From a virus (Duplodnaviria > Heunggongvirae > Uroviricota > Caudoviricetes), in the IMG/VR virus record IMGVR_UViG_3300045988_162656: 64,000 bases of DNA; one strand, written 5' to 3'. Every line of letters starts with the position of its first letter. Within the stretch, counting starts at the first letter, position 1. This document shows positions 7,930-60,914 of the stretch, in pieces. The notes beneath the pieces were generated by a model that made no database searches, was not told the DNA's origin, and saw only the letters and a list, made by a program, of their open reading frames with translations. A program made the position numbers and the translations under genes.

Positions 7930-7990
7930 ATGTTTTTCTCTTATCGTTTAGTTATTACATTCTTACACAAATTAAGTAAGTATTTACCTA

Positions 7991-9676
7991 TCATTTAACG
8001 CGTTTGAAAACGTATACGCTGACTGTGATCCCTGTGTCTTCAAACTCGTTGGTAAACGACTTCCCTCTGGCATAAACGTAATTATCCATCGTCATCCAGT
8101 CCAGTATTGGCGCAGTGCCCGGCAATACTGCTACAAGACGCCCGCCGACTTTCAGATGCCCCAGCGCAGCCAGCGTGTGCTCTCTATGACGACCAAGCGA
8201 GTACGGCGGGTTCATAACGATTTTGTCGAACTGATAACCTGCGTTGTCCTCAGACCACTTTATGAAGTCGCAGCAAATCGTGTTCGTATACCCTTTTCCA
8301 CGCAGGATATCAGCGAAGAGAGGTGCGATTTCTATGCAGGTAACATCTTCCAGATCGGCGTTAATATAGGCCAGAAGATCCCCACGTCCGGCTTGAGGCT
8401 CCAACAGCTTCTCACCAGGCTTCAATTCAGTGGCTCTGGCAACGTACTCAGCAATCAAGCGTGGGGTAGGGTAGAACTGGTGTGATTTTGTATCCGGTAT
8501 TAAACCGGTAGCCACAATCGTATTTAGCGTATGGCCGATCTCATACGGGAACTGCCAGTGCTTTTTCTCCTGCACGCCGCCAATGAAGCTCAGTGTGCGC
8601 TCAAGCTCTTCCACCTGCGACTTCTGGAGAGCTGAATCAGAGAAGTACCATACGCCTTTGTCTTTGCTCAATCGCCCGTCACGAAGCGCAGTGCGAACCG
8701 GCACGGAGATCGTCTTCTGGATTAACCCGAACTGCTTTGGTGCCCGTGTTTTTGGCGCAGTTCGGCATGGCGCGGGGATTGCAGCAGGCATACTGTAAGC
8801 CAGCACCTCATTCAACTTCCAGGCCACGTCAGGATGTATTTCAAAGTGAACGTTGCCGTTCTTGAACATCTTCACGCGCATCAGATTTCCATCGACGTTC
8901 ATCCAGTCACCGGTCTGGCAGTCGTTTGCCCGATACGCAGCTGATAGCACCTCAGCAGTGCGGTTGATGGTAATAAATTCTTTGTGCGCGAAGAAATGAA
9001 GCAAGACACGCAGATCGTCGATGTAGTCCTCTTTGCGATAGTTCACGCTAACGCTGTCACGCCAGAAATCAGAAATGCAGTCAGCGATTATCAGACGCTC
9101 GCTGAAACCGTTTGTCTTATTTGTCTTGTGCGCAGGACTCAGCGCCTTAAACAAGCCATACACGCGCTCAGAGAGATATTTGTGCCTGTCATTCAGCAAA
9201 TTAAGCATCGTTGGTATGACCGTTTCTGCTTTGAACTCCGGTACACCAACGAACTCTTTAACCTTCATCTGATAGCCGGTTCTGTCAGTTTTGATGACTT
9301 CCTGCTTGCCCTCGATAAATAGCTCACGCCACTCGTCGCGACGGGAAGCTGGCATGATCAGCAGAACGTTAGTCATATCCGTAACCTTCCTCCAGTACTC
9401 GGCCCAAATATTCTGTTTCACCCATTCCAGATCGACGTTATCCAGCCAGACTCGATTCAAACGTGAGCGATCTTCATCTGGTCGGTGGTTTAGTCGAAGC
9501 AGGCGATTAATCATGTTGTGGCGTTCATCGCCATAAACGAAGTCGTGTACCTGATACATGAAGGAGATCTCTTTCTCGCACTCGGCCACAATTTCGTGGA
9601 TGACGTTCATTTCCTGTCGATAGTCGATAGCAGTGTTTGAGCTGGCATCGCCCATGATGGAAAGGGCTGTATTCAT
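7991..9676 (-). CDS. DNA methyltransferase (amino-MTase, NPPY motif) with ~380-aa N-terminal domain of unknown function
   Basis: C-terminal FYPTP ... EPQAGRGDL ... NPPY motifs typical of N6-adenine/N4-cytosine MTases. Confidence 0.65.
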   Translation of the reverse strand: MNTALSIMGDASSNTAIDYRQEMNVIHEIVAECEKEISFMYQVHDFVYGDERHNMINRLLRLNHRPDEDRSRLNRVWLDNVDLEWVKQNIWAEYWRKVTDMTNVLLIMPASRRDEWRELFIEGKQEVIKTDRTGYQMKVKEFVGVPEFKAETVIPTMLNLLNDRHKYLSERVYGLFKALSPAHKTNKTNGFSERLIIADCISDFWRDSVSVNYRKEDYIDDLRVLLHFFAHKEFITINRTAEVLSAAYRANDCQTGDWMNVDGNLMRVKMFKNGNVHFEIHPDVAWKLNEVLAYSMPAAIPAPCRTAPKTRAPKQFGLIQKTISVPVRTALRDGRLSKDKGVWYFSDSALQKSQVEELERTLSFIGGVQEKKHWQFPYEIGHTLNTIVATGLIPDTKSHQFYPTPRLIAEYVARATELKPGEKLLEPQAGRGDLLAYINADLEDVTCIEIAPLFADILRGKGYTNTICCDFIKWSEDNAGYQFDKIVMNPPYSLGRHREHTLAALGHLKVGGRLVAVLPGTAPILDWMTMDNYVYARGKSFTNEFEDTGITVSVYVFKRVK

Positions 9677-9779
9677 AATTGCACCATTAAGAAATGATTT
9701 GTTTAATGATGCAATTATTTCAAAAATAAAAAGGTGCTAAATAGAAATTAACAGGCAATACTTAAAATAAAGGCATTGA

Positions 9780-10454
9780 CTAATCATACTTGGATGTATT
9801 TATAACCAGGACTTTATTTGTATATAGTTTTTTTACATTCCATGTAACATTACTTGAATACCATTCACCATTATATATTTGGTTTCCCGTTGCGCCTGTC
9901 ATTGTTACGTATACAGGTCTGTCGTAAGGTGTTCGTCTATAGTTATATACTCCAACCATTGCAGGCATTATCGCACACGGGTATCCCATATTTATGGTAA
10001 ATTGAGGATTTGTAATAGTGATAATCTCTGCATCAAGGGGCATCATCTCACCGTGATATACCATTTTACCTGCGCTATTATACATGGCAATACCATATCC
10101 TGAATGTGGTAACACCATATCAGAAAAAGCATAAACTGTTATCGTTCCGGGGTTTCCTCCAACCTGATTCAGTCTGAGAACATTATACCCATCTCTAAAT
10201 TCATGAACGAACATCATATTCGCCTTATTACTGCTTTTTATAAAGAAAAAACATGATTTGTTCGACGGTATTGAAGTCTTAAAAACAGAACCTTTAGACG
10301 TGGACATTGTCCCCCTATTAATCAAATTTTGCGGTGTAAATTCTGGACTCATCCACACATTACCATTTGACTGAGTAATTGACATCCCGAACATTATTGT
10401 TATCCCCAATATGTATATATATAAGATCCAAGTCCCTTGTATAAATTTGACCAA
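9780..10454 (-). CDS. hypothetical N/Y/T-rich protein with hydrophobic N-terminus, in an AT-rich island
   Basis: ORF in strongly AT-rich segment 9677-10700; atypical composition versus neighbours; start uncertain. Confidence 0.3.
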   Translation of the reverse strand: MVKFIQGTWILYIYILGITIMFGMSITQSNGNVWMSPEFTPQNLINRGTMSTSKGSVFKTSIPSNKSCFFFIKSSNKANMMFVHEFRDGYNVLRLNQVGGNPGTITVYAFSDMVLPHSGYGIAMYNSAGKMVYHGEMMPLDAEIITITNPQFTINMGYPCAIMPAMVGVYNYRRTPYDRPVYVTMTGATGNQIYNGEWYSSNVTWNVKKLYTNKVLVINTSKYD

Positions 10455-10735
10455 CTTACTGTATTGCCGTTAATAGTGATAGTTGGTGTAGGTATATTTA
10501 CATGGTTATCGTTATTTAAAGGCATCAATGAGCACACAGCATGTAATGATTTGCCAGGTGGTGGATTTGGGTAAGTCTTAGAGCCTGACGTGGTTGTAAA
10601 TCGATCAAGAAAAAAAATAGGAGTAAGGAAGCCGGTAACGTTAACTCCCTTATTATTGTAGATCCCTGTACCGTATGCCATTTTTCATCCTTGTTTTTAT
10701 CAACATAATATGGCCGATCATGCGGCCATATCAGA

Positions 10736-11305
10736 TCAATTAGAGCTTTGAAAGGCTTTGTGTGGCTGTGTTGCGAGGTTATGTCGATGGCTTAACTCAC
10801 GCATCATGTCTTCAAGGCGACTCTTTGTGTCGTCGAGTTGGTCAGCCATTGCTCCTAAAAGCTGACGAACTACCATCGGATCGTCGCTGTTTAGTGATGG
10901 CATTTTATAACCCGCCTGAGAAGACATCAGATTGAATGCTGACATCAACATCGTTAGAGAGGATTTAAGCCCGGCAATTTCACGATCTTTGCTGGCAATA
11001 ATCGTCTCACTTTTGTTACTGTCATGAGTTCCTTGAGTCTCGATCACCATATCCAAAGTCTCTTGCAACTTATCAGCTCTCTGTTTTTCAGCAAGATAAT
11101 GAACACCGAAATGATGTGCTAAAGCTACAACCTGAGTTGGCTCTTCAAAGGTGGACTCAAAATTAAGTGCTGTAACCACTCTCTCAAAAATGGAAACGTC
11201 TTCTATTCCTCGAAGAATGGCTAACATTTTGACAAGTTCATTAGCATCCATTTCTTCGAATAGGGCGTTTTGTTCATCAGCTATTGCTTTGCATTTCTCG
11301 CACAT
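10736..11305 (-). CDS. hypothetical protein
   Basis: 189-aa ORF with palindromic motif aaacaagttgttt 17 nt upstream. Confidence 0.4.
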   Translation of the reverse strand: MCEKCKAIADEQNALFEEMDANELVKMLAILRGIEDVSIFERVVTALNFESTFEEPTQVVALAHHFGVHYLAEKQRADKLQETLDMVIETQGTHDSNKSETIIASKDREIAGLKSSLTMLMSAFNLMSSQAGYKMPSLNSDDPMVVRQLLGAMADQLDDTKSRLEDMMRELSHRHNLATQPHKAFQSSN

Positions 11306-11602
11306 ATGTTTTCCTTAATGCTTAAACAAGTTGTTTTCTTATTGGCTTTATTGTGATGTGGCATAAAAGGGGAGCAAGCTAAACGTAAAGGTGCAAACTC
11401 TCTATTTCGGTCAACGAAACACAATGGCCATTTGACCCTTGTCATTAACACGTTGCTTTACGGACTAGCGGATAAGCGAAGTAGATCGCCAGACCAATGA
11501 GGACGCCATCAGAAATGACAGACATCATCTTTCCCGTAAAATCCACCAACACCGCCATCACCAGAAGAGCAATGACGGTCACAAGCCGGAATCTCTCAAG
11601 CA

Positions 11603-12028
11603 TTAGAGATAAACATCCAGTGACAACTGAAGCGCCTGGGCGATCTTTTTCAGCGCCTGCTCTTCTGGTTCATCAATGCCGTCTTGGTCGGCAATATCAA
11701 GGCACAGACAAAGTACATCTACTGCATCATCAGTCCCGGCCACATCCGCCAGCTCACGTAAAGCCTGGGCATTAGCACGGCGCGGTGAGGCTTCGTATTG
11801 AGCGCGGATATTGGCGCTCATCTGGGCAATCTCACCAGCAAAAGGAGAAAATGCAGGCAGAGCTGCAATTGTTTTCTCAAGAATGGAAATTTCTTTTGCA
11901 TCGCATGTACCGTTGGCATAGGAGATCATGTACCCACCCCACACGGTGGCTTCAACCGCATCACGGTTCTCCATTTTTTTGACTTCGATAACTGCTTTAC
12001 GAGTTTTCTTTTTGAAGAAACCTAACAT
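11603..12028 (-). CDS. hypothetical protein, possibly TerB-like
   Basis: 141-aa ORF; weak resemblance to TerB/DjlA-N type helical domain by eye; palindromic motif upstream. Confidence 0.3.
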   Translation of the reverse strand: MLGFFKKKTRKAVIEVKKMENRDAVEATVWGGYMISYANGTCDAKEISILEKTIAALPAFSPFAGEIAQMSANIRAQYEASPRRANAQALRELADVAGTDDAVDVLCLCLDIADQDGIDEPEEQALKKIAQALQLSLDVYL

Positions 12029-12121
12029 GTGTTTTCCTTTTGTTATTGGTCAAAACAAGTTGTTTTCTAGTTAAATAAATTGCTTACGCAAAGACGGTCA
12101 ATGCATATGCACTAACAACCG

Positions 12122-12310
12122 TCAGAAATAACCAAGTACCGAACCGACTGGAAAAATAAAAATCCCAACTACACGAGCCAAGGTCATGCCAGCCTGAAAC
12201 TGGAGATCGCCAGAGCAAACAAGTTTTATAATGTTCGATACCCAACCGGCGGCCATGAGGGCAAGAATTGCCAGCCAAATTTTTCCAAAGTGATTTGAAA
12301 ACCAGTTCAT
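12122..12310 (-). CDS. small membrane protein
   Basis: 62-aa ORF with two hydrophobic segments. Confidence 0.3.
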   Translation of the reverse strand: MNWFSNHFGKIWLAILALMAAGWVSNIIKLVCSGDLQFQAGMTLARVVGIFIFPVGSVLGYF

Positions 12311-12319
12311 ACAACCGCC

Positions 12320-12835
12320 TTAGTCACAGCATGATCCTGAGTAACTGGATGAACTTGAGGTATCGCATCCACCGTCATCCCATCCAGAGTGACAGGTCGC
12401 TCTACTGGAGTGGTGGTAATTGTCGTCGACGGAGGTGTGGTGATGGATGAATCCGGCATCAAAAGGCTCTGACCGGCTGGAACGGCTACCGTCGCCAGTG
12501 AAACTATAATGAGAACGTAGGCCATTGGTTTCAGCCTCTTTCTTTGAAAATTTTCCATTCGAACTGTCCTTGTTGTTTTTCTCCTTCACTAAAGGCCGTG
12601 CATTTTTCGCTTCGCGTGAAGAACCAGAGGCAACAATCGCCCACACGTTCGCAACAACTGACGCTTGATTATCTAAACGTTCATTCAGCAACCGAACGGT
12701 AGTCTCTAGTTCATCAAGGCGTGACATAACACGACCGCTAAATAATTCGGCCAAAATTTGACGTAAAGAACGAGGACGTTTAGTTACAGAAGTGAAATAG
12801 GTTTGACGTGCCATGTGGACTCCATCCAGTGTCAT
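12320..12835 (-). CDS. hypothetical protein with coiled-coil N-terminal region and Ser/Cys-rich C-terminus
   Basis: 171-aa ORF; overlaps alternative-frame ORF 12307-12558 encoding a hydrophobic-N-terminus Pro/Thr-rich peptide. Confidence 0.3.
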   Translation of the reverse strand: MTLDGVHMARQTYFTSVTKRPRSLRQILAELFSGRVMSRLDELETTVRLLNERLDNQASVVANVWAIVASGSSREAKNARPLVKEKNNKDSSNGKFSKKEAETNGLRSHYSFTGDGSRSSRSEPFDAGFIHHHTSVDDNYHHSSRATCHSGWDDGGCDTSSSSSYSGSCCD

Positions 12836-12959
12836 AAAGAGTTGCGGCTGGCAATCGCCAGCCGCCTTTCTCGTTCCATCCTGGAACTGTGTCTTACCGA
12901 CACATTGTCATCCTGACGCCGATAAGATACATGATTTATAATGATAGGTAAACACTTAC

Positions 12960-13553
12960 TTACTGTTTGTTATAAACAAAACCAATATCTTTCTTGTGAG
13001 GCATATCTGCTGCTGAAAAAGCTGCGATCTTCGCGAGTCGATCACATATTTCATTTTCACGATGCCCGGCGTGACCTTTAACCCACTTCCAGCGAACATT
13101 ATGTCGACTTGCGGCCTCATCCAGACGCTTCCACAGATCAACATTCTTTACCGGTTTTTTGTCAGAAGTCATCCATCCATTGCGTTTCCACCATTTCATC
13201 CACTGTGTCATGCCGTTTTTCAGATACTGGCTATCAGAGTGCAAAATAACGTTGCATGGATATTTCAAACGCTCCAGCCCGATAAGTGCCCCCATCATCT
13301 CCATGCGGTTATTGGTGGTGCTATGAAAACCATCTGAGAACTCGCGTTCCTCGCCACGATACTGGAGAACGATACCGTAACCGCCCGGGCCACCCGGATT
13401 TTTAAGGCAAGAGCCATCACTAAAGATTTTCACGGTTTTAAGCTGGGGATTGAACTCTACGACAGGCGTTGTGGGATTGGTGCGGGGAGAATTTTTGTTT
13501 TTGTCTTTTTTGCGAGTTTTTGCTTGCGGTCGGGCTGGTGTCTTCGTTGTCAT
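12960..13553 (-). CDS. rnhA: ribonuclease HI with basic N-terminal extension
   Basis: [42 protein letters not shown] motifs; start trimmed to MTTKTPARP with aggag RBS. Confidence 0.8.
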
Positions 13554-13649
13554 ATAAACTCCTGAATCAAGCGCCGCGCCGATTTTTCCTCGCGCGTGCG
13601 CACACGCGTGCGTGTTAATAATTATTAAAATAAACAAATTACTTCCCAG

Positions 13650-14030
13650 AACAGGTTTTTATAAACCTGAACTGAACGAACGAAGTGAGTGAAGTTCACC
13701 TCGAACGAAGTGAGAGGTTGTCTTTTCAGGTAATACTCTCCCAGGGAGGTGAGTATAAAATTCCTCACCAACCTGGTCGTTTCATAACCTGAAAAGCTAT
13801 GGTCTAAGTCTACTGCCAGCTTAGACTTGGGAAGTTATGGATGACAGCACCCCAGAACCGAGATCTTCCCACACTTTATGAAGGGGAGTACTGGATTCAA
13901 CCTCTCGAAACACCCCAGACTCGACAATCATAAAGTGACCCTTGTCTCCGCTCACTTTGGTTCCCCCTTCCCCGACACCTAAACGGCACCGGTTCTACGC
14001 TGGTAGTGAGCTTTTTTAAACCTGACGCCA
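13650..14030 (+). ncRNA. candidate structured non-coding RNA or cis element (orientation uncertain)
   Basis: 580 bp without ORFs >60 aa; nested inverted repeats (cttttcaggt/acctgaaaag enclosing two hairpins), direct repeat gaacgaagtgag x2, stem followed by tttttt at about 14030. Confidence 0.25.
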
Positions 14031-14134
14031 GTGACGCTTACCCCCACCCATCAGGTCGAGTCTCCAGTCTACGACTGGAAACTATCAGATCTTAGCACTT
14101 ACAATTCATCTTATGAATAGTTTGTACTTATCTA

Positions 14135-14389
14135 TCATTTCGATTGATTATTTTCTCGACCATGTAGTTGAACATTCAAGGCAAACACCTCGTTGATCAA
14201 CTCACCTAAAAGCTGTTCAACAAGTTCGCGATGCTCCCCAAGATGCAAGCACTTAATTGCCCACTCGTACAAGTTGAAAGCCTGCTCACGATCTTTCATC
14301 ATTTCACGAGCCTGGGCCAGAAAATCGCTGTCTACGAGCGCAACGACATTAGTCGGGTATGACATGTTGGTTTCCTTAAAGTGGTTCAT
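14135..14389 (-). CDS. hypothetical protein
   Basis: 84-aa ORF downstream of Dam-like gene. Confidence 0.35.
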   Translation of the reverse strand: MNHFKETNMSYPTNVVALVDSDFLAQAREMMKDREQAFNLYEWAIKCLHLGEHRELVEQLLGELINEVFALNVQLHGRENNQSK

Positions 14390-14552
14390 AAAATCGATTT
14401 TAAAGCGTCTGGGAAGGGGGTCTAGTGGATTCTGTAGTGATGTTCAGGTCTGGAGTCTCTGATACAAAACAGCCTGCTTCCGTATATTAATAATTAATAT
14501 GTAGTTATTTATATATATACAGAAGCAGGCTAATTACAGACGCCAGAACAAA

Positions 14553-15146
14553 CTAAGCAGCCTTCTTTGATGGTCTTTTTTTCCTGATCACATTCGCAGG
14601 ATCATACCCTCCCAGACTTTTCATGACGTCCAAAGGGATCTTGCTTATAGAGTGCCCAGCGTCCTGACAGAATCCTCGAAAAACAACGAGCATACTGCCA
14701 CCGGGGTTGATGTTTACTTCTACCTGACCCAAATTGACGTCAGGCTCGACAAACGCTACGCGGCCACCAGACAGAATAATCGTCTCATTCGCATACTCTG
14801 TTGCACGCTCATACCACTTTGTATCGAGGGATTGAGGAATTAGCATCACTGTAGTAACTCCGCGAGCCTGCTCACGTATAGCAGCATCAATCCAGGGGGA
14901 GATTTTGGAGTAGGGTGGATTGAGGAAGGCAATTGTACCTGGCTGTCCCCATTCAGATTTCAAAGCATCACGCTCAATGCCTATGAAATTAGGCAGCTTT
15001 GCGTTGTCCTTGTTGCAGGCAACGTCAACATCAAATGTCACTCCAAGATAACGTTGAATGGCAGAAAACAGCCAATCAGGTGTTCTCCAGAGGTCACGAA
15101 GAGAGTTGTCGCGCTTTCGCTGTTTGATTTTTTCGGCTGCAATCAT
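14553..15146 (-). CDS. phage-type Dam-like DNA N6-adenine methyltransferase
   Basis: DLWRTPDWLF and FLNPPYS motifs characteristic of small phage N6-adenine MTases. Confidence 0.75.
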   Translation of the reverse strand: MIAAEKIKQRKRDNSLRDLWRTPDWLFSAIQRYLGVTFDVDVACNKDNAKLPNFIGIERDALKSEWGQPGTIAFLNPPYSKISPWIDAAIREQARGVTTVMLIPQSLDTKWYERATEYANETIILSGGRVAFVEPDVNLGQVEVNINPGGSMLVVFRGFCQDAGHSISKIPLDVMKSLGGYDPANVIRKKRPSKKAA

Positions 15147-15328
15147 CTTCTTTCTCGATAGGTAAGCAAATACCTATTTTTGCATTTGATTTTATGTATG
15201 GCAATCAAATAAAACGCGCCAGAAATGCGAACAAGAAGCTCTCTGGCGCGTTTTTTTGGTGCTGGGTATGGGTTATCTTACCCAGCACTATAAAGCTCTC
15301 TATGGGCTTTATTTTCAGTAGGGGAACG

Positions 15329-16138
15329 TCATCCAATAGTGTACTCCGCGACAAACTTCTTAACGATCGGTGATTCTTCGTTCAATGTTAGATTTCCACC
15401 GTCTCTAACGGCAATTCCTGTAGCTGGAAATACAGCCATCATTTGCCCAGCCTGAGTTGACGCAGTGTTAAGCGGATACGGTTTTTCTGGATTGCTCATT
15501 AAAGCAATCTTAATACTATTACTTGTAGCCTTCTTTTCTGTAAGAAGGTGTCTCATGGAAATTACCGTGTAAACACTAATATCTGGACCTCCGCTAAACC
15601 AATTAAGAAGGTTTAATATCTTATCCTTCGCTTTGACAGGCGCGTTTTCGTAAGCGTCTAAGAAAATATCTTTTTCTAAGCCTGCTTTATTGAAAAACGA
15701 ATCATCTTTATCACTTAAAGTAAAACTAGGACCTCTTGCAGCACGAGTTTTTTTATTTGTATTGCTATCATTTGACTGTTGAACTTTTAATTCATCATTA
15801 ACCTCAACACAATCTTCAACCTCAATGATCCCCAACTGTTCTGGCTCATTTTCGGCAGCTTCACCACTTTCAGCGTTAATTACGTTTATAGGCTCATGCG
15901 CTAACTCCAACTCATTTAAAGCAGAGCTGAAATCACCTGCTTTTTCTTCATTGAACAGTTCTTCGGCAACATCATCAGAACTCATGGCTACGCCAGCATC
16001 GAGGCCGAGAAGCAGATCGTCAATATCATCAGTATTTTCAACCTGTGCAGCTTTTTTTACTGGTTCATCAAGTGATTGCAACATGGCTGTCAGCTCATCC
16101 AGATCATCATTTGTCATTACATTTTCAACCGAACTCAT
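15329..16138 (-). CDS. hypothetical acidic protein
   Basis: 269-aa ORF, highly acidic N-terminal half. Confidence 0.4.
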   Translation of the reverse strand: MSSVENVMTNDDLDELTAMLQSLDEPVKKAAQVENTDDIDDLLLGLDAGVAMSSDDVAEELFNEEKAGDFSSALNELELAHEPINVINAESGEAAENEPEQLGIIEVEDCVEVNDELKVQQSNDSNTNKKTRAARGPSFTLSDKDDSFFNKAGLEKDIFLDAYENAPVKAKDKILNLLNWFSGGPDISVYTVISMRHLLTEKKATSNSIKIALMSNPEKPYPLNTASTQAGQMMAVFPATGIAVRDGGNLTLNEESPIVKKFVAEYTIG

Positions 16139-16298
16139 GTAAGTCTCCTTCTGTTTAGTTGCATTTGCGTTTCGATGGCTACATTTTGACTAAACCTATC
16201 AGGCGGAAAAGTATTAAATACAGGCAGGAAATGATTGAAAGGCGACTGTTCTTTAAAAGAAAGCCTGCTTCAAACTCTCTTTAAAGCAGGCTTTTGTT

Positions 16299-16856
16299 TT
16301 ACACAGTTTCAGAGGGTAATTTAAAAAATCCGTATTTATTACGTGCCTTAAAGAAGCATTGCATCATTAAGTTTGTGTCATATAAGGCACTATGTGCTTT
16401 GGCATGATCGTATATAAAGCCAAGAGAGAAGGCCAATTCTTCAAGGCGAGGACGTTTACCGTCTTCTGTGGCCCACAATCCCGATAACATAGTATCTATA
16501 ACGGGAACGTCTGGCAGTCTTACTCCATACCCTGAAAACTCGTGTCTAATAAATGGTATATCAAACGCTTCGCCGTTATGAGCAACCCACGCACTACATG
16601 CCTCCATATAAGCGCCAATTTCGCTAGCATGATTTGACAACAAAGGTTCAGCTGCGAGCTGTTCTAATGAAATGCCATGAACGGCTTGAGCTTTCGGATC
16701 TATGTTTCTGCGAGGGTTAAAACGCATCTCCAGACTATCAATATGTCTCTGTGTCTCCAGTTCATAGCGGGTAATTGCGATTTCAATAATTTTATGACCA
16801 GCAAGGAAATCCAGTCCCGTAGACTCGATATCGATGCCTGCAACAATCGTTGTCAT
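16299..16856 (-). CDS. DnaQ-like 3'-5' exonuclease (DEDD family)
   Basis: GIDIESTG, HNGEAFDIPF, HSALYDT motifs. Confidence 0.65.
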   Translation of the reverse strand: MTTIVAGIDIESTGLDFLAGHKIIEIAITRYELETQRHIDSLEMRFNPRRNIDPKAQAVHGISLEQLAAEPLLSNHASEIGAYMEACSAWVAHNGEAFDIPFIRHEFSGYGVRLPDVPVIDTMLSGLWATEDGKRPRLEELAFSLGFIYDHAKAHSALYDTNLMMQCFFKARNKYGFFKLPSETV

Positions 16857-16865
16857 CAGAACTCC

Positions 16866-17285
16866 TTACAACTTCTTAGCGCCCTTAAGTAGTGCGCTAC
16901 GTACAAATTGAGCCGCTTTTTTCAAAGTTTCTTCACTGGTTTCACAGACAATCGGATCTTTCCACTTACCTGACGCAGTGTTGAGAATATTGATTTGGTT
17001 GCTATCCAGACAAACAGAGATATAAAGCACCGTGCCACCAGCCAGCATCAAATGCATAGGAAACAGAGGCTTTTTACTGTCCTCACTGAACTGAGACATG
17101 GCGATGTTAATGGCTTCACCTACTTGTGCGCCAACAAGCCCCTGCGCAGTTTCGAATATGGCACGAATAGCCAGACGAGCCTCTCGATCGCTCATAAGCG
17201 ACCGGGAATGTTCGTCCGCTACACGAATCAAAGCCTCTGTTGTTTTCCGATCCAGTTCATCTTCAAGCAACATTTCACTAAACAT
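16866..17285 (-). CDS. hypothetical protein
   Basis: 139-aa ORF between exonuclease and kinase. Confidence 0.4.
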   Translation of the reverse strand: MFSEMLLEDELDRKTTEALIRVADEHSRSLMSDREARLAIRAIFETAQGLVGAQVGEAINIAMSQFSEDSKKPLFPMHLMLAGGTVLYISVCLDSNQINILNTASGKWKDPIVCETSEETLKKAAQFVRSALLKGAKKL

Positions 17286-17346
17286 TTTTTATCCTTAACC
17301 CATTTTGAGAGTTTTATTGTCGCAATGTCGAAGAGGCGAACAATTT

Positions 17347-17991
17347 CTAATGAACGGTCACTCGACCACAGAACCGGTTTTCTATCTTTTCTACAGCGTT
17401 ATCTAGCATTCTCATCACTGATCTGGCTCTTGCTTCAACCGTGCGATATCGGTTGGAAACGACGAAGGTTTGCAGATCCCCCCTTTGCGGATGCAGGTGA
17501 ATTTTTGTCAGTTCCCCGCACATCAACGCATCAATACGAGCGACATACAGACGGTCTAATGATGCTCGTTGTGATCGCAAGTAATCTCGCTCTGAGAGAG
17601 CGACTCCCGGGCGTAGGCCAGCAATGGCGTTAAAGTTTGAAATAGCAGTTTTGTGGCAAAACTTTTCGATATCGAGGGCTAACTCAATACATCGATCTTC
17701 ATTGGTATGGCCGACCAAATCCAACGTGTAGGCCATAACATCAGCAGGTGTGCGATCGATAACAAAGCCTTCAACACCACGCGTAAGTAGCTCTATATGC
17801 TTTGCGATTTCCATTTGAATCTGAAGCCGCTCATATAGAGGCATAGACTCACCTACTCGAACACCGAGTCGGCTCATCAAACTTCCGACACCAGCATCCA
17901 CGTAAGGGATTCCGTAATGTTTGTCGATATATTTTGCCAGGGTTGTTTTCCCACTGCCCTGAGCACCAGTGATCCCAATCCGGTAATCCAT
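17347..17991 (-). CDS. P-loop nucleotide kinase (dNMP/deoxynucleoside kinase-like)
   Basis: Walker A GAQGSGKTT at N-terminus; position within dNTP-metabolism cluster. Confidence 0.5.
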   Translation of the reverse strand: MDYRIGITGAQGSGKTTLAKYIDKHYGIPYVDAGVGSLMSRLGVRVGESMPLYERLQIQMEIAKHIELLTRGVEGFVIDRTPADVMAYTLDLVGHTNEDRCIELALDIEKFCHKTAISNFNAIAGLRPGVALSERDYLRSQRASLDRLYVARIDALMCGELTKIHLHPQRGDLQTFVVSNRYRTVEARARSVMRMLDNAVEKIENRFCGRVTVH

Positions 17992-18865: not shown

Positions 18866-18878
18866 ACCTCTTGCCATA

Positions 18879-19982: not shown

Positions 19983-20149
19983 AAAACCTCACGAAGATAA
20001 GTAATCAATTATTTATCACGTGAGTTTACATTCATTGATAAAACAAGACCAGATAGATAAAAAATGGTGGCCATAGGCCACCAAAAAGAATAGTCGTTCC
20101 AGAGTTTTATACGCAAATCAAATATACATTAGTAGATAATCACCTACAA

Positions 20150-21019: not shown

Positions 21020-21096
21020 GCTAGTTTTGTTCCTTCTTAATTCTTGTGATCCATTGTGGCCCAGCGTTGCCAGGTCACATAATGCTTTGTATCGGT

Positions 21097-38071: not shown

Positions 38072-38073
38072 GA

Positions 38074-39335: not shown

Positions 39336-39344
39336 GTAATGGGA

Positions 39345-44744: not shown

Positions 44745-44746
44745 GA

Positions 44747-50231: not shown

Positions 50232-50438
50232 TTATTGGCATTCACCTAGTTACGCTGATCACCTGTATAAGTAACCAGTATATTAGGCATTGATTCTTTT
50301 GGAATCAAGCTAAAATCTTTCATGCGGAAAATGATTCCATACCTAAAGAGTATGGAATCATTTTTTTCTGTAGAGCTAGTTTTAAATATTTGATTCGATA
50401 TGAAGCCAGGCAATTTCATGCCTGGCTGTTACTTTGTG

Positions 50439-52352: not shown

Positions 52353-52577
52353 AATCGTTACTCCTTTAACGATAAACTTTAGCTAAAATCGATACGATTT
52401 TAGCAGTTAAAAAACGACAATAAAATATAAGAGTAATGTATGAAAGAACAATAAAAATTGCGTAAATGGATATGTGTAAAATATGTGGAATTTCACACAC
52501 AGCGTTGAGCGGTCTGGTTTATGTTAGCGGAGTCTTAATCGAGTTGATTAAAAGGCCAAACCGCTCAACGCTGTGTC

Positions 52578-52664
52578 TGGCGGAGAGTAATGGAATCGAA
52601 CCATCATCGCTTGCGCAATGGGACGGTTTTCAAGACCGCTTGAGCACCATGCTCCCTACTCTCC
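52578..52664 (-). tRNA. tRNA-Ser (anticodon TGA), type II with long variable arm
   Basis: hand-folded: acceptor GGAGAGT/ACTCTCC, anticodon loop CTTGAAA, T-loop TTCGATT, 3' CCA encoded. Confidence 0.8.
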
Positions 52665-52888
52665 GGCCGTTGTGGTGGCCGGTACTGAATCTCCGGCATA
52701 CGGTGCAGCCAATTAGGACTACGGACGATCACCGCTCGCGAAAGGGAAGATTTGCGGCCGCATTTCCCTAACATCCAAGAAAGCTATCGCATTAGTCTGC
52801 GAATCCACCACAACGGTAAGATCACTACCTTTCGACCAGTCATTGTGCACATGAACGACGATTAACCGTAATGATCTTATCGTTGTAT

Positions 52889-52964
52889 TGGTGCCGGTTA
52901 GCGGACTCGAACCGCTGACATCCTGCTTACAAGGCAGGCGCTCTACCAACTGAGCTAAACCGGC
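52889..52964 (-). tRNA. tRNA-Thr (anticodon TGT)
   Basis: acceptor GCCGGTT/AACCGGC, D-arm AGCTCAGTTGGTAGAGC, anticodon loop CTTGTAA, T-loop TTCGAGT, CCA encoded. Confidence 0.85.
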
Positions 52965-52968
52965 AATT

Positions 52969-53055
52969 TGGTGGGGAGTGATGGAGTCGAACCACCCGAG
53001 TTGCAATGACAGTAGATTTACAGTCTACCCAGCTGCCCCTACGGACTAACTCCCC
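52969..53055 (-). tRNA. tRNA-Tyr (anticodon GTA), type II
   Basis: acceptor GGGGAGT/ACTCCCC, anticodon loop ACTGTAAATCT, long variable arm, CCA encoded. Confidence 0.8.
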
Positions 53056-53060
53056 TAAAT

Positions 53061-53135
53061 TGGCGATGGTGGGTGGATTCGAACCACCGACCAGTTGGTT
53101 AACAGCCAACTGCTCTACCGCTGAGCTACACCATC
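53061..53135 (-). tRNA. tRNA-Asn (anticodon GTT)
   Basis: acceptor GATGGTG/CACCATC, anticodon loop CTGTTAA, T-loop TTCGAAT, CCA encoded. Confidence 0.85.
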
Positions 53136-53895
53136 AATTCAGCACTGCCAGTATTTATTACTCAACAGTGCCAATCGCGGCGGTGTTAGTTTCTGCCAGG
53201 AAACGCACCGCTACTTGCACTTTTTCGTTAGTGTCAGACGCTTTCGACTTCTCTCAATAGAAGGCAAAATCTTTAAGTAGATGATGTTTCTGAGGACAGC
53301 ACCTACTTTGTAATTTATACAATGTGATGTATGGAATCATTTGTTGTGGAAAAGTGGTTAAACCTACACAACAATCCTGTCTTCACAACGTTGAGGCCAC
53401 TACTCCGATTGAATGTTTGCCCAACATGTTACATATCAACGCTCGCCGGTATCTCTGTGAATAGAACCTTAGAATTGATAAAAATGTAATGGCCTCAACG
53501 TTGTGTGCTGGCTAACCATACCAGCCGGGCTACGTCGCCGCTTTTTAACCCAGTATAAACGACATAATTGAACAAAATGACGTAACAGAATGGGCGGTCA
53601 GTGGCTAAGAATCCGGGAGTCATATGGAGTTGAAAATATACCGACCGCCCATTCTGTTACTTCATCGGAGGGAACATGAGTGTTCCCTCCTGCGTTCTGC
53701 AATCACACTCGCTCAGTGTGTCCCATTTCGGTAACGAGGCTGGAAACTGACCTCGCTGGTGTTTGGCTTATTAGGCTACTGCCAGATAGACTTCTTCGTT
53801 TGCACTTGTATTTAAGTTCAAACAGTCGCATCTCAACGAAAACAAAGTCATCTTATACACAAAGGATAAGTAAGTAAATACTTATCGATATGTTT

Positions 53896-54186
53896 TTATT
53901 CGGTTGTGACTTTTTTGATCAAGGCCACTCTACGACTAGGTGTTCTTGTGATGGTGGCAGTGAATCGTTTCGCTTGGATAGTAATGGTTTCGTTCTCCTT
54001 AAGTTGCCCGTAGCGAGTTTCCACCAGGGTGCCAAGACGCCACAGACCATCATCGATACGTTTATGACTAGCAAATTTAATCAGCAACAGTTTTACGACT
54101 AACTGACCTACGTAAAAGGCGAATGCGACTCCGACCGCTAAGAAATAGGTGGCCAACCACCAGTCCCAAGAAGTTAAATTGCTCAT
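53896..54186 (-). CDS. small membrane protein
   Basis: 96 aa, one N-terminal TM helix; ATGA-coupled. Confidence 0.35.
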   Translation of the reverse strand: MSNLTSWDWWLATYFLAVGVAFAFYVGQLVVKLLLIKFASHKRIDDGLWRLGTLVETRYGQLKENETITIQAKRFTATITRTPSRRVALIKKVTTE

Positions 54187-54335
54187 TTTCTAACCTTTGT
54201 TTCATGAACTACCCGATACACACGCTTTCCGATGCACAGTGTTTTGGTTTTAAGTTCCTGCTTAATTAAATCACGACAGATGCCGAAGCCGATAAGGAAG
54301 CCACCAATAAAAGCTAATGAGATGTATGGAATCAT
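54183..54335 (-). CDS. small membrane protein (50 aa; below ORF-track cut-off)
   Basis: hand translation MIPYISLAFIGGFLIGFGICRDLIKQELKTKTLCIGKRVYRVVHETKVRK; stop/start overlaps on both sides. Confidence 0.3.
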   Translation of the reverse strand: MIPYISLAFIGGFLIGFGICRDLIKQELKTKTLCIGKRVYRVVHETKVRK

Positions 54336-54547
54336 TTTAACACTCCTGATTCTACTAATTGCTGTAGCAATACTTTCCCTTTATCAGTTAACTGGTAGTT
54401 GGCTGAGCACCACGTTTCCGAAATGTTTGCAACCAACCCTAAACGCTCTAAATTAGCTCGCGTTTTAGGCTTCCAGTACTGAGGGAACTCCGGCCACTTA
54501 CTTATTTCATGAAGCGTTTCTTTCTCCCGTTTACTTAATACGATCAT
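54332..54547 (-). CDS. hypothetical protein
   Basis: 71 aa, coupled downstream of ligase gene. Confidence 0.35.
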   Translation of the reverse strand: MIVLSKREKETLHEISKWPEFPQYWKPKTRANLERLGLVANISETWCSANYQLTDKGKVLLQQLVESGVLK

Positions 54548-55866
54548 TCTTTATCTCCGATTCGATCTTCGGTATCGCGTAAGCAACGCGGCCATTTCAG
54601 TCGTGGGTGGCGTAAGCTGCCATCAGGTGTTTTCTCGTGACAATGAACCTCGACAATACGACCACGGTACTTCTCTTTGTTGTTCCAGATCTCGTCCAGA
54701 TATTTATGCTTAATGCCGCTCGCACGAACGATGACGCCGTTTTCAAGACGAATAACTATTTTTCCAAGCGTGTTGGCAAAACCAGAGTCCGGGTCGCCCG
54801 GCTCAAAATCGATAATTTCACCATCTTCTGAATCTTCGTCTTTTAACTTCCACCAGCTGCGGGTACGTTTAAACTCGTAAACAGAGTTCGGATCTTTGCC
54901 CATCTCCCCTTCTTCGTTATCGTCCAGGCGTTTCATGAAGCGTTCGATGAAGTCTTCGTGGCTATGGATGATATAGAACGGATGCAGGTGAATGTCTTGT
55001 GTGTAGCCTTCACTGCGATCGTTTTTAAACAACGCCACCAGCATAGCCAGGCGCTCTTTCAGCTTCATACCTGTCTTTGCATACTCTTTGGATTTAGCCT
55101 GTGCTCGCCATTCCGGTAGGAAGAAGTCGAAAACATGATAAATAGCGCCAATTGCCTGCACGTTCTTTTTGCGCAATGCAGATACGGACTGGTTAAATGA
55201 ACCGGCAGTTCCTTCACCATCGAAGAAGATGTGTTTGTGGCCTGAAAGTTTGCCTAATTCTAGCATTGCTGGCTTTAGGTGATCGAGAGACGTGATTGGA
55301 TTACCAGTACGAGAAAGGAAGTTAACCTCTTCCTCGTCAACAATAACCTCGCAAATTACTCGCAAACCATCGAGCTTAAGACTGCCAATCATCGGCCATT
55401 TTGCTTTAGGATTTGGCTTGAAGGGGTATTTGTCGCCTTTTTCTTTATACGGTGACGCCAGCTGCACCTCGAATTTCGGAATGGGATTTTCAAAAACCTT
55501 GTTGCATAGGCTAATCCCAACACCTGCTTTCGGGTCTTTTAAGAGGAAACGACGGAACACGTCCTGCCCATCGGCGCACATTGACGCCACGATAGACTCA
55601 ACAGCTGCTATTGCTGCGTTCCCCGTTAGCTCGCGAGAGGCCAGCTTATTCAGTACATCAATGGCTTTTTCGTCACTTGGGATGGACTCACTAAGCGGCT
55701 CTGCCACTTTGTATTTCTTTACCCCAAAACGGATGAAAGGGTTGAGCATCAATGAAACCATGCTTTGCTCGAAGTCATCCATGTTGGCCAATGCCTCTTT
55801 TTTTGCATTGGTTCCCATAGCTTTCATTTCGTCCAGCTTATGCTTAAGTGCGATCAACTTTTTCAT
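54544..55866 (-). CDS. ATP-dependent DNA ligase
   Basis: adenylation motif KLDGLR and OB-fold region; 440 aa. Confidence 0.8.
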   Translation of the reverse strand: MKKLIALKHKLDEMKAMGTNAKKEALANMDDFEQSMVSLMLNPFIRFGVKKYKVAEPLSESIPSDEKAIDVLNKLASRELTGNAAIAAVESIVASMCADGQDVFRRFLLKDPKAGVGISLCNKVFENPIPKFEVQLASPYKEKGDKYPFKPNPKAKWPMIGSLKLDGLRVICEVIVDEEEVNFLSRTGNPITSLDHLKPAMLELGKLSGHKHIFFDGEGTAGSFNQSVSALRKKNVQAIGAIYHVFDFFLPEWRAQAKSKEYAKTGMKLKERLAMLVALFKNDRSEGYTQDIHLHPFYIIHSHEDFIERFMKRLDDNEEGEMGKDPNSVYEFKRTRSWWKLKDEDSEDGEIIDFEPGDPDSGFANTLGKIVIRLENGVIVRASGIKHKYLDEIWNNKEKYRGRIVEVHCHEKTPDGSLRHPRLKWPRCLRDTEDRIGDKE

Positions 55867-56345
55867 TGTTGTTTTACCTCCATATGTTGATCGATTTGCT
55901 CATGTGTTTCTTTTGTTGTTTCTTCAAGCAACGCCGCATACACGTCAGTGATCGCTGTTTGTGATGTGGTGCTCTTCTTAACCATGCTATTAATCGTTAC
56001 ACTGTCACGTTTTCGTTTTAAAGTTCTGGCTTGTTTATTCCGTTCTTCAACCTCCTTAATGAGCGCGGTCATATCTTCGAAATACAGAGATTCTCCTTTA
56101 CGAATCTCTTCAACCATCATTTTTAACGCCTTGCATTTGCCTGCTTTGATAGCGGTTGCGCACGACTGGAATGAAGTTCGAGGAAGACGGTTTTCTTTGA
56201 AGGCAAGAATGGTGTGCTGGCAAACGGAGTAGCTGCAATATGCCGACTCACCGTTTATCTTTACTTCCTCACAACGAAGTGAATAACCATTATTTCCTGA
56301 AATAGAGGGGATTTTTGACAAATCAGCTTTCACAACTACCGCCAT
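55863..56345 (-). CDS. hypothetical protein
   Basis: 160-aa ORF overlapping ligase start by 4 nt. Confidence 0.4.
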   Translation of the reverse strand: MAVVVKADLSKIPSISGNNGYSLRCEEVKINGESAYCSYSVCQHTILAFKENRLPRTSFQSCATAIKAGKCKALKMMVEEIRKGESLYFEDMTALIKEVEERNKQARTLKRKRDSVTINSMVKKSTTSQTAITDVYAALLEETTKETHEQIDQHMEVKQQ

Positions 56346-56400
56346 AAATAATCTTGTACTTACCTATCGTTATTTGCGTAAAAAACGACGCGCGGAGAGA

Positions 56401-57177
56401 TTACCAACTTCCCCAGCTAATCATCTTGCGCTGATTGCTTTCTAAGCGATAGGGGGCAAGAAGCTCTGTGACATGATTGGTGGCGTATGATTTAGCCTCT
56501 TGCTCTATCATCGGTAATTCGTTAGCAATCCTGACCACCTTCCAAGCAAATTCCGCCATTACGCCATCACATGCCTTCCCAGCATCAATAACGATATGCA
56601 CCAGATCCAACTGGCTTTTGCACATGTCGCAAAGAGACGCATACTCACTCTCTCTGATTACATTTACGGCATCATTAGCCCCTTTATTAAGCAAGACTTC
56701 CAACAGATTTTTCGGGGTAACGAAATCTGCTTTCAGAGATAATGTCTTTTCACCACTTATCGAACGCAAGTACTCTTCGTAGTTATTCTTCATCAAACCG
56801 CTGCTGCGCATTGCTAGAACTGCTTCTTGAATGGCCGCTTCAATAGTTTCGTCGTTTGAAAGACAAAAAACGGTATTTGTGTAGATCACTCTGCCATCAA
56901 GCCATGCTCCAACCTGCACTTTAAGACTGAGCGGGTTTTCTTTGCTAATAAAAACAACTAATGCAGAACGTCGTGCACAAGAAGGTTCACCCCATACGTG
57001 TAACTTAACCTTCAGATAAGGTAGCCCCGGTAGCGGGATCTCGACCAAACGAGTGGCGATATGATCCATTGCTGTTTTTACCGCTTTTTCAATGATGTCT
57101 AGTCGATTGCTCTCGCTGATTTCTAAACCAGTTTTATCAATGATGTCGCAGGCTAATTTCTGAATTTCGTCTTTCAT
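56401..57177 (-). CDS. hypothetical protein
   Basis: 258-aa ORF with promoter-like palindrome upstream (57218-57238). Confidence 0.4.
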   Translation of the reverse strand: MKDEIQKLACDIIDKTGLEISESNRLDIIEKAVKTAMDHIATRLVEIPLPGLPYLKVKLHVWGEPSCARRSALVVFISKENPLSLKVQVGAWLDGRVIYTNTVFCLSNDETIEAAIQEAVLAMRSSGLMKNNYEEYLRSISGEKTLSLKADFVTPKNLLEVLLNKGANDAVNVIRESEYASLCDMCKSQLDLVHIVIDAGKACDGVMAEFAWKVVRIANELPMIEQEAKSYATNHVTELLAPYRLESNQRKMISWGSW

Positions 57178-57252
57178 ACCAACTCCTAGCTAACAGATGA
57201 AAGTATTCTCACAGAAAGATAAGTAATCATCTACTTATTTTAAAGGTGATTG

Positions 57253-59856: not shown

Positions 59857-59899
59857 GTGCTTTCCTTTGTTTTTTAAACAAATTGTTTTCTAGTATTAG

Positions 59900-60649
59900 T
59901 TAATTAGATAGGGGATCAATAAACCGCCGTGCTTCTTCCAGTTCTTCTGGAAAGTGGGCGGAAATAAGGCGCTCTGGAACGATTTCCATTAGCCAGATAG
60001 CGGAGAAAATTGCGCGTATGCGCTTGCTGCGAGGGATGGTGCGCAAACACTCCAGAATCCACTCAAAATAGCTTTCCTGAATCGGGTTGAACTGCATGTC
60101 TCCCATATGCTTAAAGCTAACAAGAGAGTCATCCAGACGGGTTGTTGCGCGTCTGGCTAATTTCTCTTCGAATATCTCAACCAGCTCTGGCTGCCACAAA
60201 TGCTGTGGGCGCGGCAGCTTGTCCCACAGCCGTCGTGCAGCTGCGGAAAGAACGGTGGAGATAAAGTAGTCGTATGAGCAGCAATAGCGGTCAGCAAACT
60301 GGCGTGCTTTCCATAGAGACGTTTTATTGGCAGTCGACAACTCCTGATAAGGCAGGCGTTTTAACCCGGTGGTGAACGGAGCTGTTTCAAAGTGTTCGCG
60401 ACCGTGCGTCAGCATGATATTTGAGTACTGACGTTTGTATGCCTCCGTAAACAGACAGGTGGCCATAAGAGGATGCATGTCTCGGTAATCAAACCACTTC
60501 GTCTCGAAGAGTTCAGCCTCGTCTTTACAGCGCGACAAACCAATGTTTTCAGCGACCCACTTGTCCATAACAGCGGTATTCCACTCTGTCATGAAGTCGT
60601 ACTGGTCGTTGTCGATGGTATCGAAAAAGATTTGGCTCATGTGGCTCAC
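59900..60649 (-). CDS. hypothetical protein
   Basis: 249-aa ORF. Confidence 0.4.
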   Translation of the reverse strand: MSHMSQIFFDTIDNDQYDFMTEWNTAVMDKWVAENIGLSRCKDEAELFETKWFDYRDMHPLMATCLFTEAYKRQYSNIMLTHGREHFETAPFTTGLKRLPYQELSTANKTSLWKARQFADRYCCSYDYFISTVLSAAARRLWDKLPRPQHLWQPELVEIFEEKLARRATTRLDDSLVSFKHMGDMQFNPIQESYFEWILECLRTIPRSKRIRAIFSAIWLMEIVPERLISAHFPEELEEARRFIDPLSN

Positions 60650-60914
60650 CTGGTAGGTAGTTACTTACTTATCACAATGGACGGATGATAGCGACTGGTG
60701 TCAGTTTTTGGAAGTGAAAACGGAAGGGAGTTGTTCTGGTGGTGTCTTTTAAAAGACCTGCTTCCGTATATATTTAATAAGTTACTTATTATTTATATAC
60801 AGAAACAGGCTCCTAATGGATACCAAGAACAACATAATTTGACTCCAACTCCAGATGCTATGTCATTGACAGATTTATCAAGGGAGATCATGTTAGAATT
60901 AGTGTTTTAGCCTC

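Follow-up and report, generated by a model that had tools for sequence, protein, structure and literature searches.

The stretch of DNA described here, IMG/VR record IMGVR_UViG_3300045988_162656, comprises 64,000 nucleotides (nt) of a virus of the Caudoviricetes and is referred to throughout, at its full length, as the window. A 10-kb query taken from it (36000-46000) is 100% identical to CP054387.1, 'Escherichia phage CMS-2020a', and to plasmid p09EL50 of Escherichia coli O104:H4. The same query matches PhiR41_1 and Cyrano (pLF82) at 95-98% identity and Salmonella phage SSU5 and Klebsiella phage-plasmids at about 80%. Identity to p09EL50, CMS-2020a, Cyrano and SSU5 assigns the window, on sequence grounds, to a phage-plasmid of E. 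coli of the SSU5/pSLy3 type. Almost all of its genes are on the minus strand and have roles in nucleotide metabolism and in the replication and recombination of DNA; the window also encodes RepB, ParA, an integrase and a helix-turn-helix (HTH) regulator. The junctions between these genes carry repeated copies of a palindrome, which we consider to be the probable operators of one regulon with the HTH protein as the candidate repressor.

The palindrome was first noticed from the sequence of the window. In that original prediction it was given as ATAAGTA-N-TACTTAT, with a gap of variable length, at ten places, and all ten do hold an instance of the motif. The variable gap did not survive alignment of the copies. 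Taken literally, ATAAGTA-N(0-12)-TACTTAT matches the window three times and 100 shuffled sequences not at all, and GATAAGTA-N-TACTTATC with up to three mismatches finds 15 loci in the window compared to 2.4 ± 1.5 (maximum 8) in 200 dinucleotide shuffles. Nearly all matches to the relaxed pattern have spacers of 2 or 6, 19 matches as against about 0.4 expected. Alignment by Gibbs sampling accommodates every copy in a single ungapped frame, a palindrome of fixed length, 22 bp, with the consensus GATAAGTAAGT-ACTTACTTATC (the hyphen marks the centre) and the degenerate form RATARGTAAGT-RCTTACYTATY. The consensus sampled from 19 loci of the complete plasmid p09EL50, GATAAGTAAGTACTTACTTATC, is a perfect palindrome with a TA step at each 4 bp. 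The apparent gap is an artefact of this internal (TAnn)5 periodicity: the N2 and N6 classes reflect the 4-bp internal repeat, and two heptamers at a variable distance are ruled out by the single 22-bp frame.

A symmetrised scan matrix was built from the sites of phage SSU5, and non-overlapping peaks of at least 12 bits were counted. The window has 16 such peaks, 12 of them of at least 22 bits, compared to 0.12 peaks in shuffled non-coding DNA. All 16 are in non-coding DNA, which occupies 13.2% of the window (binomial p ~9e-15). Pattern and matrix scans both bear out the enrichment that had been proposed as a check. The best-conserved positions of the dispersed sites are in the outer arms (2-8 and 15-21), the centre is conserved least, and the flanks of the palindrome are symmetric too. 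Covariation between the arms is absent, with 375 of 550 arm positions complementary compared to 379 ± 7 when right-arm columns are shuffled among sites. Each half therefore fits the consensus alone, as expected for the target of a dimeric DNA-binding protein. We are highly confident that the 22-mer is a protein-binding regulatory site marking lytic transcription units. In the per-column comparison of the 22-mer with the remaining intergenic DNA the sample is dominated by close relatives, some loci have insertions and several leaders are conserved themselves. An exact-pattern scan of IMG/VR gave, among the matches listed, mostly single occurrences, which we take to be chance.

How are the sites placed with respect to promoters and genes? 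The clearest case is 36937-36958 (27.4 bits), which fills the spacer and overlaps the -10 hexamer of a TTGAAA-17-TATTAT promoter (36963-36935, minus strand). The original prediction had placed 36938-36953 in the spacer of this promoter, and an independent consensus scan recovers it as the top minus-strand match in 20 kb, with 10 of 12 consensus positions. Reading with transcription, the stop codon of a RecA-like gene is followed by a G+C-rich terminator (36973-36993), TTGAAA, 17 nt and TATTAT or TATCAT. The -35 hexamer is identical in every relative that keeps the promoter region, a different insertion being present there in 4 of 34, and the downstream leader varies. The same layout is found at 40457-40478 (26.6 bits), upstream of the gene for a gp32-like single-stranded DNA-binding protein (SSB), where the conserved promoter is TAGATA-17-TATCAT/TATTAT and its -10 is made up of the final 4 bp of the palindrome and 2 further nt. 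The site at 24705-24726 (27.6 bits), 44 nt upstream of nrdA, covers the -35 and spacer of a conserved TTGATA-17-TAACAT, and that at 32896-32917 (22.4 bits) contains the -10 of a conserved TTTACA-17-TAGTAT. These four sites overlap promoter hexamers. A fifth, 15157-15178 (24.9 bits), is 10 nt upstream of the start of a Dam-type methyltransferase gene, next to its Shine-Dalgarno sequence, and would cross the +1 of a predicted TTGCCA-17-AAAAAT promoter. The approximate spans are -30 to -9 for 36937 and 40457, -33 to -12 for nrdA and -20 to +2 for 32896, with 15157 at about +1. The palindrome of 32896-32917 abuts the ATG of open reading frame (ORF) 32716-32895 (minus strand), the homologue of CYRAN_60, which has no Shine-Dalgarno sequence. 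Transcription from TTTACA-17-TAGTAT would start at or near this ATG, making the ORF a candidate for a leaderless mRNA.

Three further sites are followed at 3-5 nt by a conserved element on the minus strand that is kept in Cyrano and SSU5. The site at 7971-7992 (27.5 bits) overlaps the stop codon of a DUF4942 gene, is 41 nt upstream of an Ead/Ea22-like gene and precedes TGTAAGAAT (7954-7970). The site at 57218-57239 (23.2 bits), 40 nt upstream of ORF 56401-57177, precedes TGTGAGAAT/TGTAAGAAT (57201-57217). The best copy of all, GATAAGTATTTACTTACTTATC at 53865-53886 on the minus strand (28.2 bits), precedes TGTATAAGAT (53850-53864). The element reads as an extended -10 and could be a separate protein site; as an extended -10 it would place the palindrome at about -41 to -20. 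Downstream of the best copy is a cluster of four tRNA genes on the minus strand (52578-53135; Ser-tga, Thr-tgt, Tyr-gta and Asn-gtt), of which the palindrome may be the promoter or operator. At this locus three tRNAs are annotated in Cyrano (Asn, Thr and Ser) and one in SSU5 (Asn).

The remaining sites are found at gene ends and starts. Two of them abut Shine-Dalgarno sequences: thyX begins 13 nt downstream of 19996-20017 (22.8 bits), and ORF 59900-60640 begins 11 nt downstream of 60652-60673 (25.6 bits); a weaker copy at 56347-56368 (13.4 bits) is 1 nt from the start of ORF 55863-56345. The site at 29389-29410 (26.6 bits) is 111 nt upstream of an SbcD-like gene, and that at 12943-12964 (26.1 bits) overlaps the stop codon of an RNase H gene, 128 nt upstream of the next gene. 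Other weaker copies are at 14115-14136 (14.2 bits, overlapping the stop codon of a small ORF), 14496 and 60776-60797. Nine of the ten places originally listed score 22-28 bits; the tenth, 46044-46061 (best frame 46040-46061), upstream of a MoxR-type ATPase gene, reaches 6.4 bits, has its core ATAAGTAAnnACTTAC kept in relatives and is followed by a conserved TATATTTATATAAGA. The weaker copies said to lie elsewhere are indeed present (14115, 14496, 56347 and 60776), and the list had not explicitly included the strong sites 12943-12964, 15157-15178 and 32896-32917. Overall, five sites in the window are 0-13 nt from a start codon, as is one at the TerL/portal junction of p09EL50, outside the window, at 13 nt; nine of 15 overlap the stop codon of the upstream gene or are within 17 nt after it. 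The position of the palindrome relative to the likely promoter elements varies by more than 30 bp. Such variation fits operators, which may act anywhere in the RNA polymerase footprint or as a roadblock, and not an activator site of fixed geometry.

The full 109-kb plasmid p09EL50 has 19 sites, all but one intergenic. Beyond the replication module they are found at the TerL/portal junction, inside the portal gene, before the tail genes and in the divergent ParB/helicase region. Genes preceded by sites are both early and late, and include nrdA, thyX, those for SSB and SbcD, and the tRNA genes together with the portal and tail genes. Equivalent gene junctions hold similar sites in Cyrano, SSU5 and IMG/VR relatives, in Kluyvera and Buttiauxella, and in pMT1 of Yersinia pestis. 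A more distant Klebsiella plasmid, with an HTH protein 45% identical to that of the window, has the same motif. In Acinetobacter baumannii relatives (HTH 38% identical) the motif is a variant, TATTAGTAAGYRCTTACTAATA, with the inner 14 bp shared and the outer arms different.

The original prediction had identified no matching repressor in the window, but a candidate is encoded there. The gene at 48747-49133 is on the plus strand, opposes the lytic genes and is situated beside the integrase gene. Its product (WP_014962299.1) is a 128-residue protein of XRE/Cro-CI type, a homologue of CYRAN_45, which is annotated as 'putative repressor'. Pfam families HTH_19 and HTH_37 give weak matches, under the curated cut-off, and the phrog_8 transcriptional regulator matches with E = 7e-12. 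The AlphaFold model, with pLDDT of 86-89 over residues 11-80, displays a five-helix XRE-type domain. Foldseek aligns it with C.AhdI (root-mean-square deviation 1.5 Å over 62 residues) and 434 Cro/repressor, at E-values of only 0.004-0.08, and with HigA and Stl-type HTH domains, the E-values being weak overall; domains of these kinds bind palindromes as dimers. No solved structure is detectable for the protein by sequence. Members of the family hardly vary in the recognition-helix region, YKNxNNLSLIKSGK.

The promoter of this gene (48675-48702, plus strand) consists of TTTACA, a 16-nt spacer and TAATAT, and is nearly invariant across relatives. A near-perfect 14-bp palindrome, GGTAAGCACTTACC (48704-48717), with arms GGTAAG and CTTACC around a central CA, begins 1 nt past the -10 and lies over the expected +1; it too is nearly invariant, in 22 distinct relatives. 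When the centres are aligned it corresponds to the inner 14 bp (positions 5-18, RGTAAGT-RCTTACY) of the 22-bp consensus. Judged from this likeness, it is plausible that the same protein recognises the dispersed sites and the site at the HTH promoter. Motif-like sites are present, too, within the promoters of the HTH genes in the Klebsiella and Acinetobacter relatives. The gene has the anatomy of an operator at its own promoter, and autoregulation is predicted from that anatomy. Divergent from it, in a cro-like position, is a small conserved ORF, C46 (48287-48499, minus strand, 70 residues, phrog_2627), in which domain and PHROG searches found no Pfam or DNA-binding domain. Upstream of C46 (48550-48584) the direct repeats TATATCATAATTGA and TATATCATATCTGA occur with a separation of 21 bp; neither is a copy of the 22-mer.

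The module of HTH gene plus integrase is present in 961 PLSDB plasmids. For most genera the counts of module and backbone agree closely, 348 and 314 respectively in Klebsiella, 230 and 231 in Escherichia, 92 and 91 in Enterobacter, 63 and 63 in Yersinia, and 49 and 49 in Salmonella; a further 123 Acinetobacter records have the HTH gene, the backbone query being without a match there. Ten phage records match 48% or more of the 10-kb backbone query; seven of these have the HTH gene, which is absent from the two SSU5 records and the 84-kb ST13-OXA48phi12.3. Two records of the unrelated phage P88 matched the query over only 6%.

Expression data are available for the LF82(Cyrano) lysogen (PMC9928086, supplementary file 2). 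Of the 14 covered genes downstream of sites, most are near the background of about 10 normalised counts in that file. The values are 9.8 for CYRAN_3, 6.8 for CYRAN_6, 6.9 for CYRAN_17, 9.6 for CYRAN_21, 6.2 for CYRAN_31, 6.7 for CYRAN_48, 9.1 for CYRAN_53, 7.5 for CYRAN_65, 7.6 for CYRAN_69 and 11.3 for CYRAN_72 (PMC9928086). Both CYRAN_56 and CYRAN_60 read 4.99, the detection floor (PMC9928086), the former despite a near-consensus promoter, TTGAAA-17-TATCAT. Two exceptions are above background, CYRAN_34 with 44 counts and CYRAN_12 with 22, and the HTH gene itself, CYRAN_45, is expressed in the lysogen with 96 (PMC9928086). For the lysogen-expressed genes listed in PMC9928086 that fall in the scanned stretch, the 100 bp upstream hold no 22-mer with three or fewer mismatches. 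The silence of the downstream genes fits repression.

How should the motif and its statistics, the non-coding placement, conservation and genome-wide spread of the sites, their overlap with promoter hexamers, and the candidate gene with its promoter palindrome be interpreted? From them we infer that a protein binds, which protein it is, and that its effect is repressive. Our preferred interpretation, to which we give a probability of about 0.55, is that the sites, which precede most of the lytic transcription units of the phage-plasmid, are the operators of one regulon and that the HTH protein of 48747-49133 represses these units. It is favoured because the position of the sites varies, because strong palindrome-bearing promoters of sigma-70 type are silent in the lysogen and because a related palindrome lies at the +1 of a repressor-like gene. 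On the same grounds the earlier proposal of many operators for one repressor in promoter regions is favoured. In the plasmid-prophage state a dimeric XRE-type repressor supplied by the element would occupy the 22-mers. Depending on the site, it would occlude the -35, spacer and -10, or the start site, of promoters used by the host sigma-70 polymerase. When bound to a site that separates a stop codon from the following ribosome-binding site, the protein could block elongating polymerase in the manner of mycobacteriophage stoperators. The repressor would limit its own synthesis through the 14-bp core palindrome at the +1 of its promoter; were it lost or inactivated after DNA damage, early and late genes would be derepressed at once.

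Several observations weigh against this interpretation. The silence of the downstream genes is equally expected of promoters awaiting an activator. At about 12 of the 19 sites of p09EL50 there is no recognisable -35, and at the three sites with the extended -10-like TGTAAGAAT the palindrome takes the place of the -35, which would suit an activator too. The site at the HTH promoter keeps the inner 14 bp only, the outer arms are absent and the full 22-mer frame scores 6.2 bits. SSU5 retains good sites without the HTH gene, although it may be a derivative from which the immunity region was lost by recent deletion. Lastly, a Pfam domain search found no recognisable S24 cleavage domain in the HTH protein. 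Cyrano is induced 39-fold by ciprofloxacin (PMC9928086), and without an S24 domain such induction would need an antirepressor or some other further step.

Could the palindrome be bound, instead, by an activator encoded on the element and define a lytic promoter class of its own, the activator taking over from the -35 in the way of P1 Lpa (-22 box) or T4 MotA (-30)? The genes would then be off in the lysogen because the activator is not made. A good -35 is missing at most sites, a common frame in which the last 4 bp plus 2 nt give TATNAT can be drawn, and at 7971, 57218 and 53865 a conserved extended -10-like TGTAAGAAT or TGTATAAGAT follows a palindrome at about -41 to -20. A related half-site, AAGTnACTT, precedes the -10 of P1 late promoters by 4 nt, and the HTH fold resembles that of the controller (C) proteins of restriction-modification systems, which both activate and repress. 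Yet placement varies by more than 30 bp against conserved promoter hexamers and start codons, and the five window sites, with that at the TerL/portal junction, 0-13 nt from a start codon leave no space for a start site and leader. The A/T that completes TATNAT is about equally frequent on both sides (12 of 18 and 10 of 18), as part of the palindrome and not of a directional -10. A fixed directional TATNAT at the palindrome end was rejected as a general rule, the flanking A/T being symmetric and those same sites too near start codons. Furthermore, the complete sigma-70 promoters with sites should fire unaided, yet are silent in the lysogen, there is no Lpa homologue, and early and late genes share the motif. 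We regard a dedicated activator as unlikely. Less probable again is that the sites are real operators with a different binder, such as C46 acting like Cro, or a host protein common to Enterobacterales and Acinetobacter. SSU5 with sites and no HTH gene, the HTH promoter site with just the inner 14 bp in common with the consensus, and the conservation of C46 in its cro-like position all speak for such a binder. However, C46 shows no DNA-binding domain and has hardly any similarity (E = 0.05) to the ORF in its position in Acinetobacter, and a host factor would have to be common to Acinetobacter and Yersinia although the outer arms change between lineages. We know of no E. coli regulator with this consensus; Fur, NarL (7-2-7), H-NS, CRP and LexA sites resemble it partly at most. 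A combination, in which the HTH protein or a partner is bifunctional, activating where the palindrome replaces the -35 and repressing where it covers the -10 or +1, is drawn by analogy and is put forward as a speculative possibility of low probability.

Two further explanations do not require a transcription factor as the binder. The palindromes might be dispersed parS-like centromeres for proteins of ParA/ParB type, comparable to the palindromic centromeres scattered over phage-plasmid N15, with any effect on transcription secondary. ParA is encoded at 62408-63076, two ParB-domain proteins are encoded outside the window, and replication of the element is that of a plasmid. Nevertheless, about 20 sites genome-wide are linked to gene junctions and promoter hexamers, and the core copy is at the HTH gene promoter and not at the par operon. 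Type I partition systems normally autoregulate upstream of parA, and no peak of at least 12 bits is present upstream of parA (63077-63238). We consider a centromere role very improbable. We think it scarcely credible that the palindromes work at the RNA level, forming intergenic hairpins for transcript termination, processing or stabilisation. The nine of 15 sites at or within 17 nt after upstream stop codons would suit this, and a few fold better than their shuffles (z = -5.8 for 36937 and -4.4 for 53865). However, seven of 12 folds are within 1.6 standard deviations of the shuffle mean and energies are -0.9 to -8.4 kcal/mol; the stems are A+U-rich with no regular U tract in the flanks, and the arms do not covary. 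A separate G+C-rich terminator precedes 36937, a terminator scan finds hairpins of that kind and not the palindromes, and no Rfam family matches. The RNA hairpin or intrinsic terminator was rejected on the weak folds, the lack of arm covariation and the lack of an Rfam match; the palindromes lack the G+C-rich hairpin plus U tract by which intrinsic terminators are defined.

With the operator interpretation in mind the sites can be compared with known systems. The original prediction invoked the pattern of P1 C1, and as an analogue with dispersed single operators the comparison is apt. P1 is also a plasmid-prophage, and one repressor acts there at many single dispersed operators, over the promoters of separate lytic operons and of the repressor gene; the P1 record annotates C1 operators at 1962, 2628, 21015, 48140, 49810, 89904 and 94166-94740. 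Single operators dispersed at the promoters of separate operons are what is seen here. As kinship the comparison fails. The P1 operators are asymmetric 17-mers, ATTGCTCTAATAAATTT in the annotated record, unrelated to the symmetric 22-mer, and a tblastn search of the window, p09EL50, Cyrano and SSU5 with residues 1-261 of P1 C1 found no homologue (best E = 4.2). In addition, P1 late genes run through Lpa without direct C1 operators, whereas here the structural-gene junctions also bear the motif. The P1 Lpa promoters have an AAGT/ACTT inverted repeat just upstream of the -10 and no -35, and all six that we extracted read AA(G/A)T-N-A(C/T)T(T/A), 4 nt, TAnnnT. The centre of our palindrome is likewise AAGT-ACTT, but it has no central base, its outer arms are conserved best, its distance to the -10 is variable and it is not restricted to late genes. 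No Lpa homologue was found by tblastn (best E = 0.95), and homology to P1 Lpa or C1 was dismissed.

The stoperators of mycobacteriophages L5 (gp71) and Bxb1 (gp69) are tens of sites genome-wide, confined almost wholly to small gaps between genes, many of them at a stop or start codon and some where no promoter can lie; they are 13-bp, asymmetric and orientation-dependent. PMC1934351 mentions multiple asymmetric operators. Placement in short intergenic gaps throughout the genome, including non-promoter positions, is shared and suggests blocking of read-through. The differences are that the present sites are 22-bp palindromes, several of them on promoter hexamers, and that the repressor family and host phylum are others. 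At the level of the protein, the fit of the predicted HTH domain to 434 Cro, 434 repressor and C.AhdI gives TM-scores of 0.7-0.8 (target-normalised). The 434 operators, ACAA-N6-TTGT, have a 4-6-4 geometry, and the core RGTA-N6-TACY has the same geometry with half-sites one helical turn apart. A repressor gene divergent from a small ORF is a further likeness to the 434/P22-type Cro/CI regions. Unlike them, the element has no tandem OR/OL triplets beside the repressor gene, and instead has single sites of 22-26 bp over about 100 kb. The dispersed C1 operators of P1 and the mycobacteriophage stoperators appear, by analogy, to be closest in function. The arrangement is a dispersed repressor-operator network, yet not a member of the P1 or L5 families, and the candidate protein is within the broad XRE/Cro-CI fold class.

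Phage-plasmids of the SSU5/pSLy3/pHCM2/pMT1 type are common, with about 800-960 PLSDB records having this backbone and HTH gene. Among the hosts of these plasmids are Y. pestis, S. Typhi-type Salmonella, K. pneumoniae, E. coli O104:H4 and A. baumannii, and resistance genes are spread by some of the plasmids. Literature searches by topic and by motif sequence returned no paper on the control of lysis versus lysogeny in SSU5/pHCM2-type elements and no description of the 22-mer sites or of repressor targets. If the operator interpretation is right, it gives the operator's sequence, maps the regulon and names a candidate for the master repressor, and makes the switch directly testable. It would also allow prediction of the regulon in hundreds of plasmids, typing of immunity groups by outer-arm variants, and engineering of the element by curing, induction or repressor-controlled promoters. 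Were the HTH protein bifunctional, a single palindrome with a single protein would set the timing of the entire lytic programme, early and late genes included, with no need for a separate late regulator, and the scope would be the phage-plasmid superfamily from Acinetobacter to pMT1 of Yersinia and pHCM2 of Salmonella.

Some other features of the element and its relatives are of note. The window is not collinear with p09EL50 throughout (window positions of about 1-6200 and 50400-54600 were compared). Gene offsets are 244 bp at the left end, 3 bp from about 6160 to 22000, and several hundred bp near a DUF6645 gene and in the tRNA and ligase region, which points to insertions and deletions in accessory regions. 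A stand-alone UmuD-like S24 peptidase with no HTH domain is encoded at 1390-1779 on the minus strand (phrog_811, E = 6e-54). In the syntenic Acinetobacter relatives a gene for a sigma-70 family factor is flanked by dnaE and the gene of the MoxR-type ATPase (A. baumannii plasmid pCFSAN093707, 15101-15766). A phage sigma factor was also considered and set aside, being encoded by those relatives but without a counterpart, by tblastn, in the E. coli element, Cyrano or SSU5. Outside the window, p09EL50 20198-20722 is a close match to FljA (PF03614, E = 9e-80), the repressor of phase-1 flagellin, which suggests that the phage-plasmid could alter flagellin expression in its host. Finally, the SSB gene has a leader of 83 nt (40374-40456, minus strand) that is almost invariant in about 40 distinct relatives. 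It contains GCTCGAAAGAGC, a hairpin with a GNRA loop, and a second G+C-rich inverted repeat, and matches no Rfam family. By analogy with the leader of T4 gene 32 it may be a translational operator.

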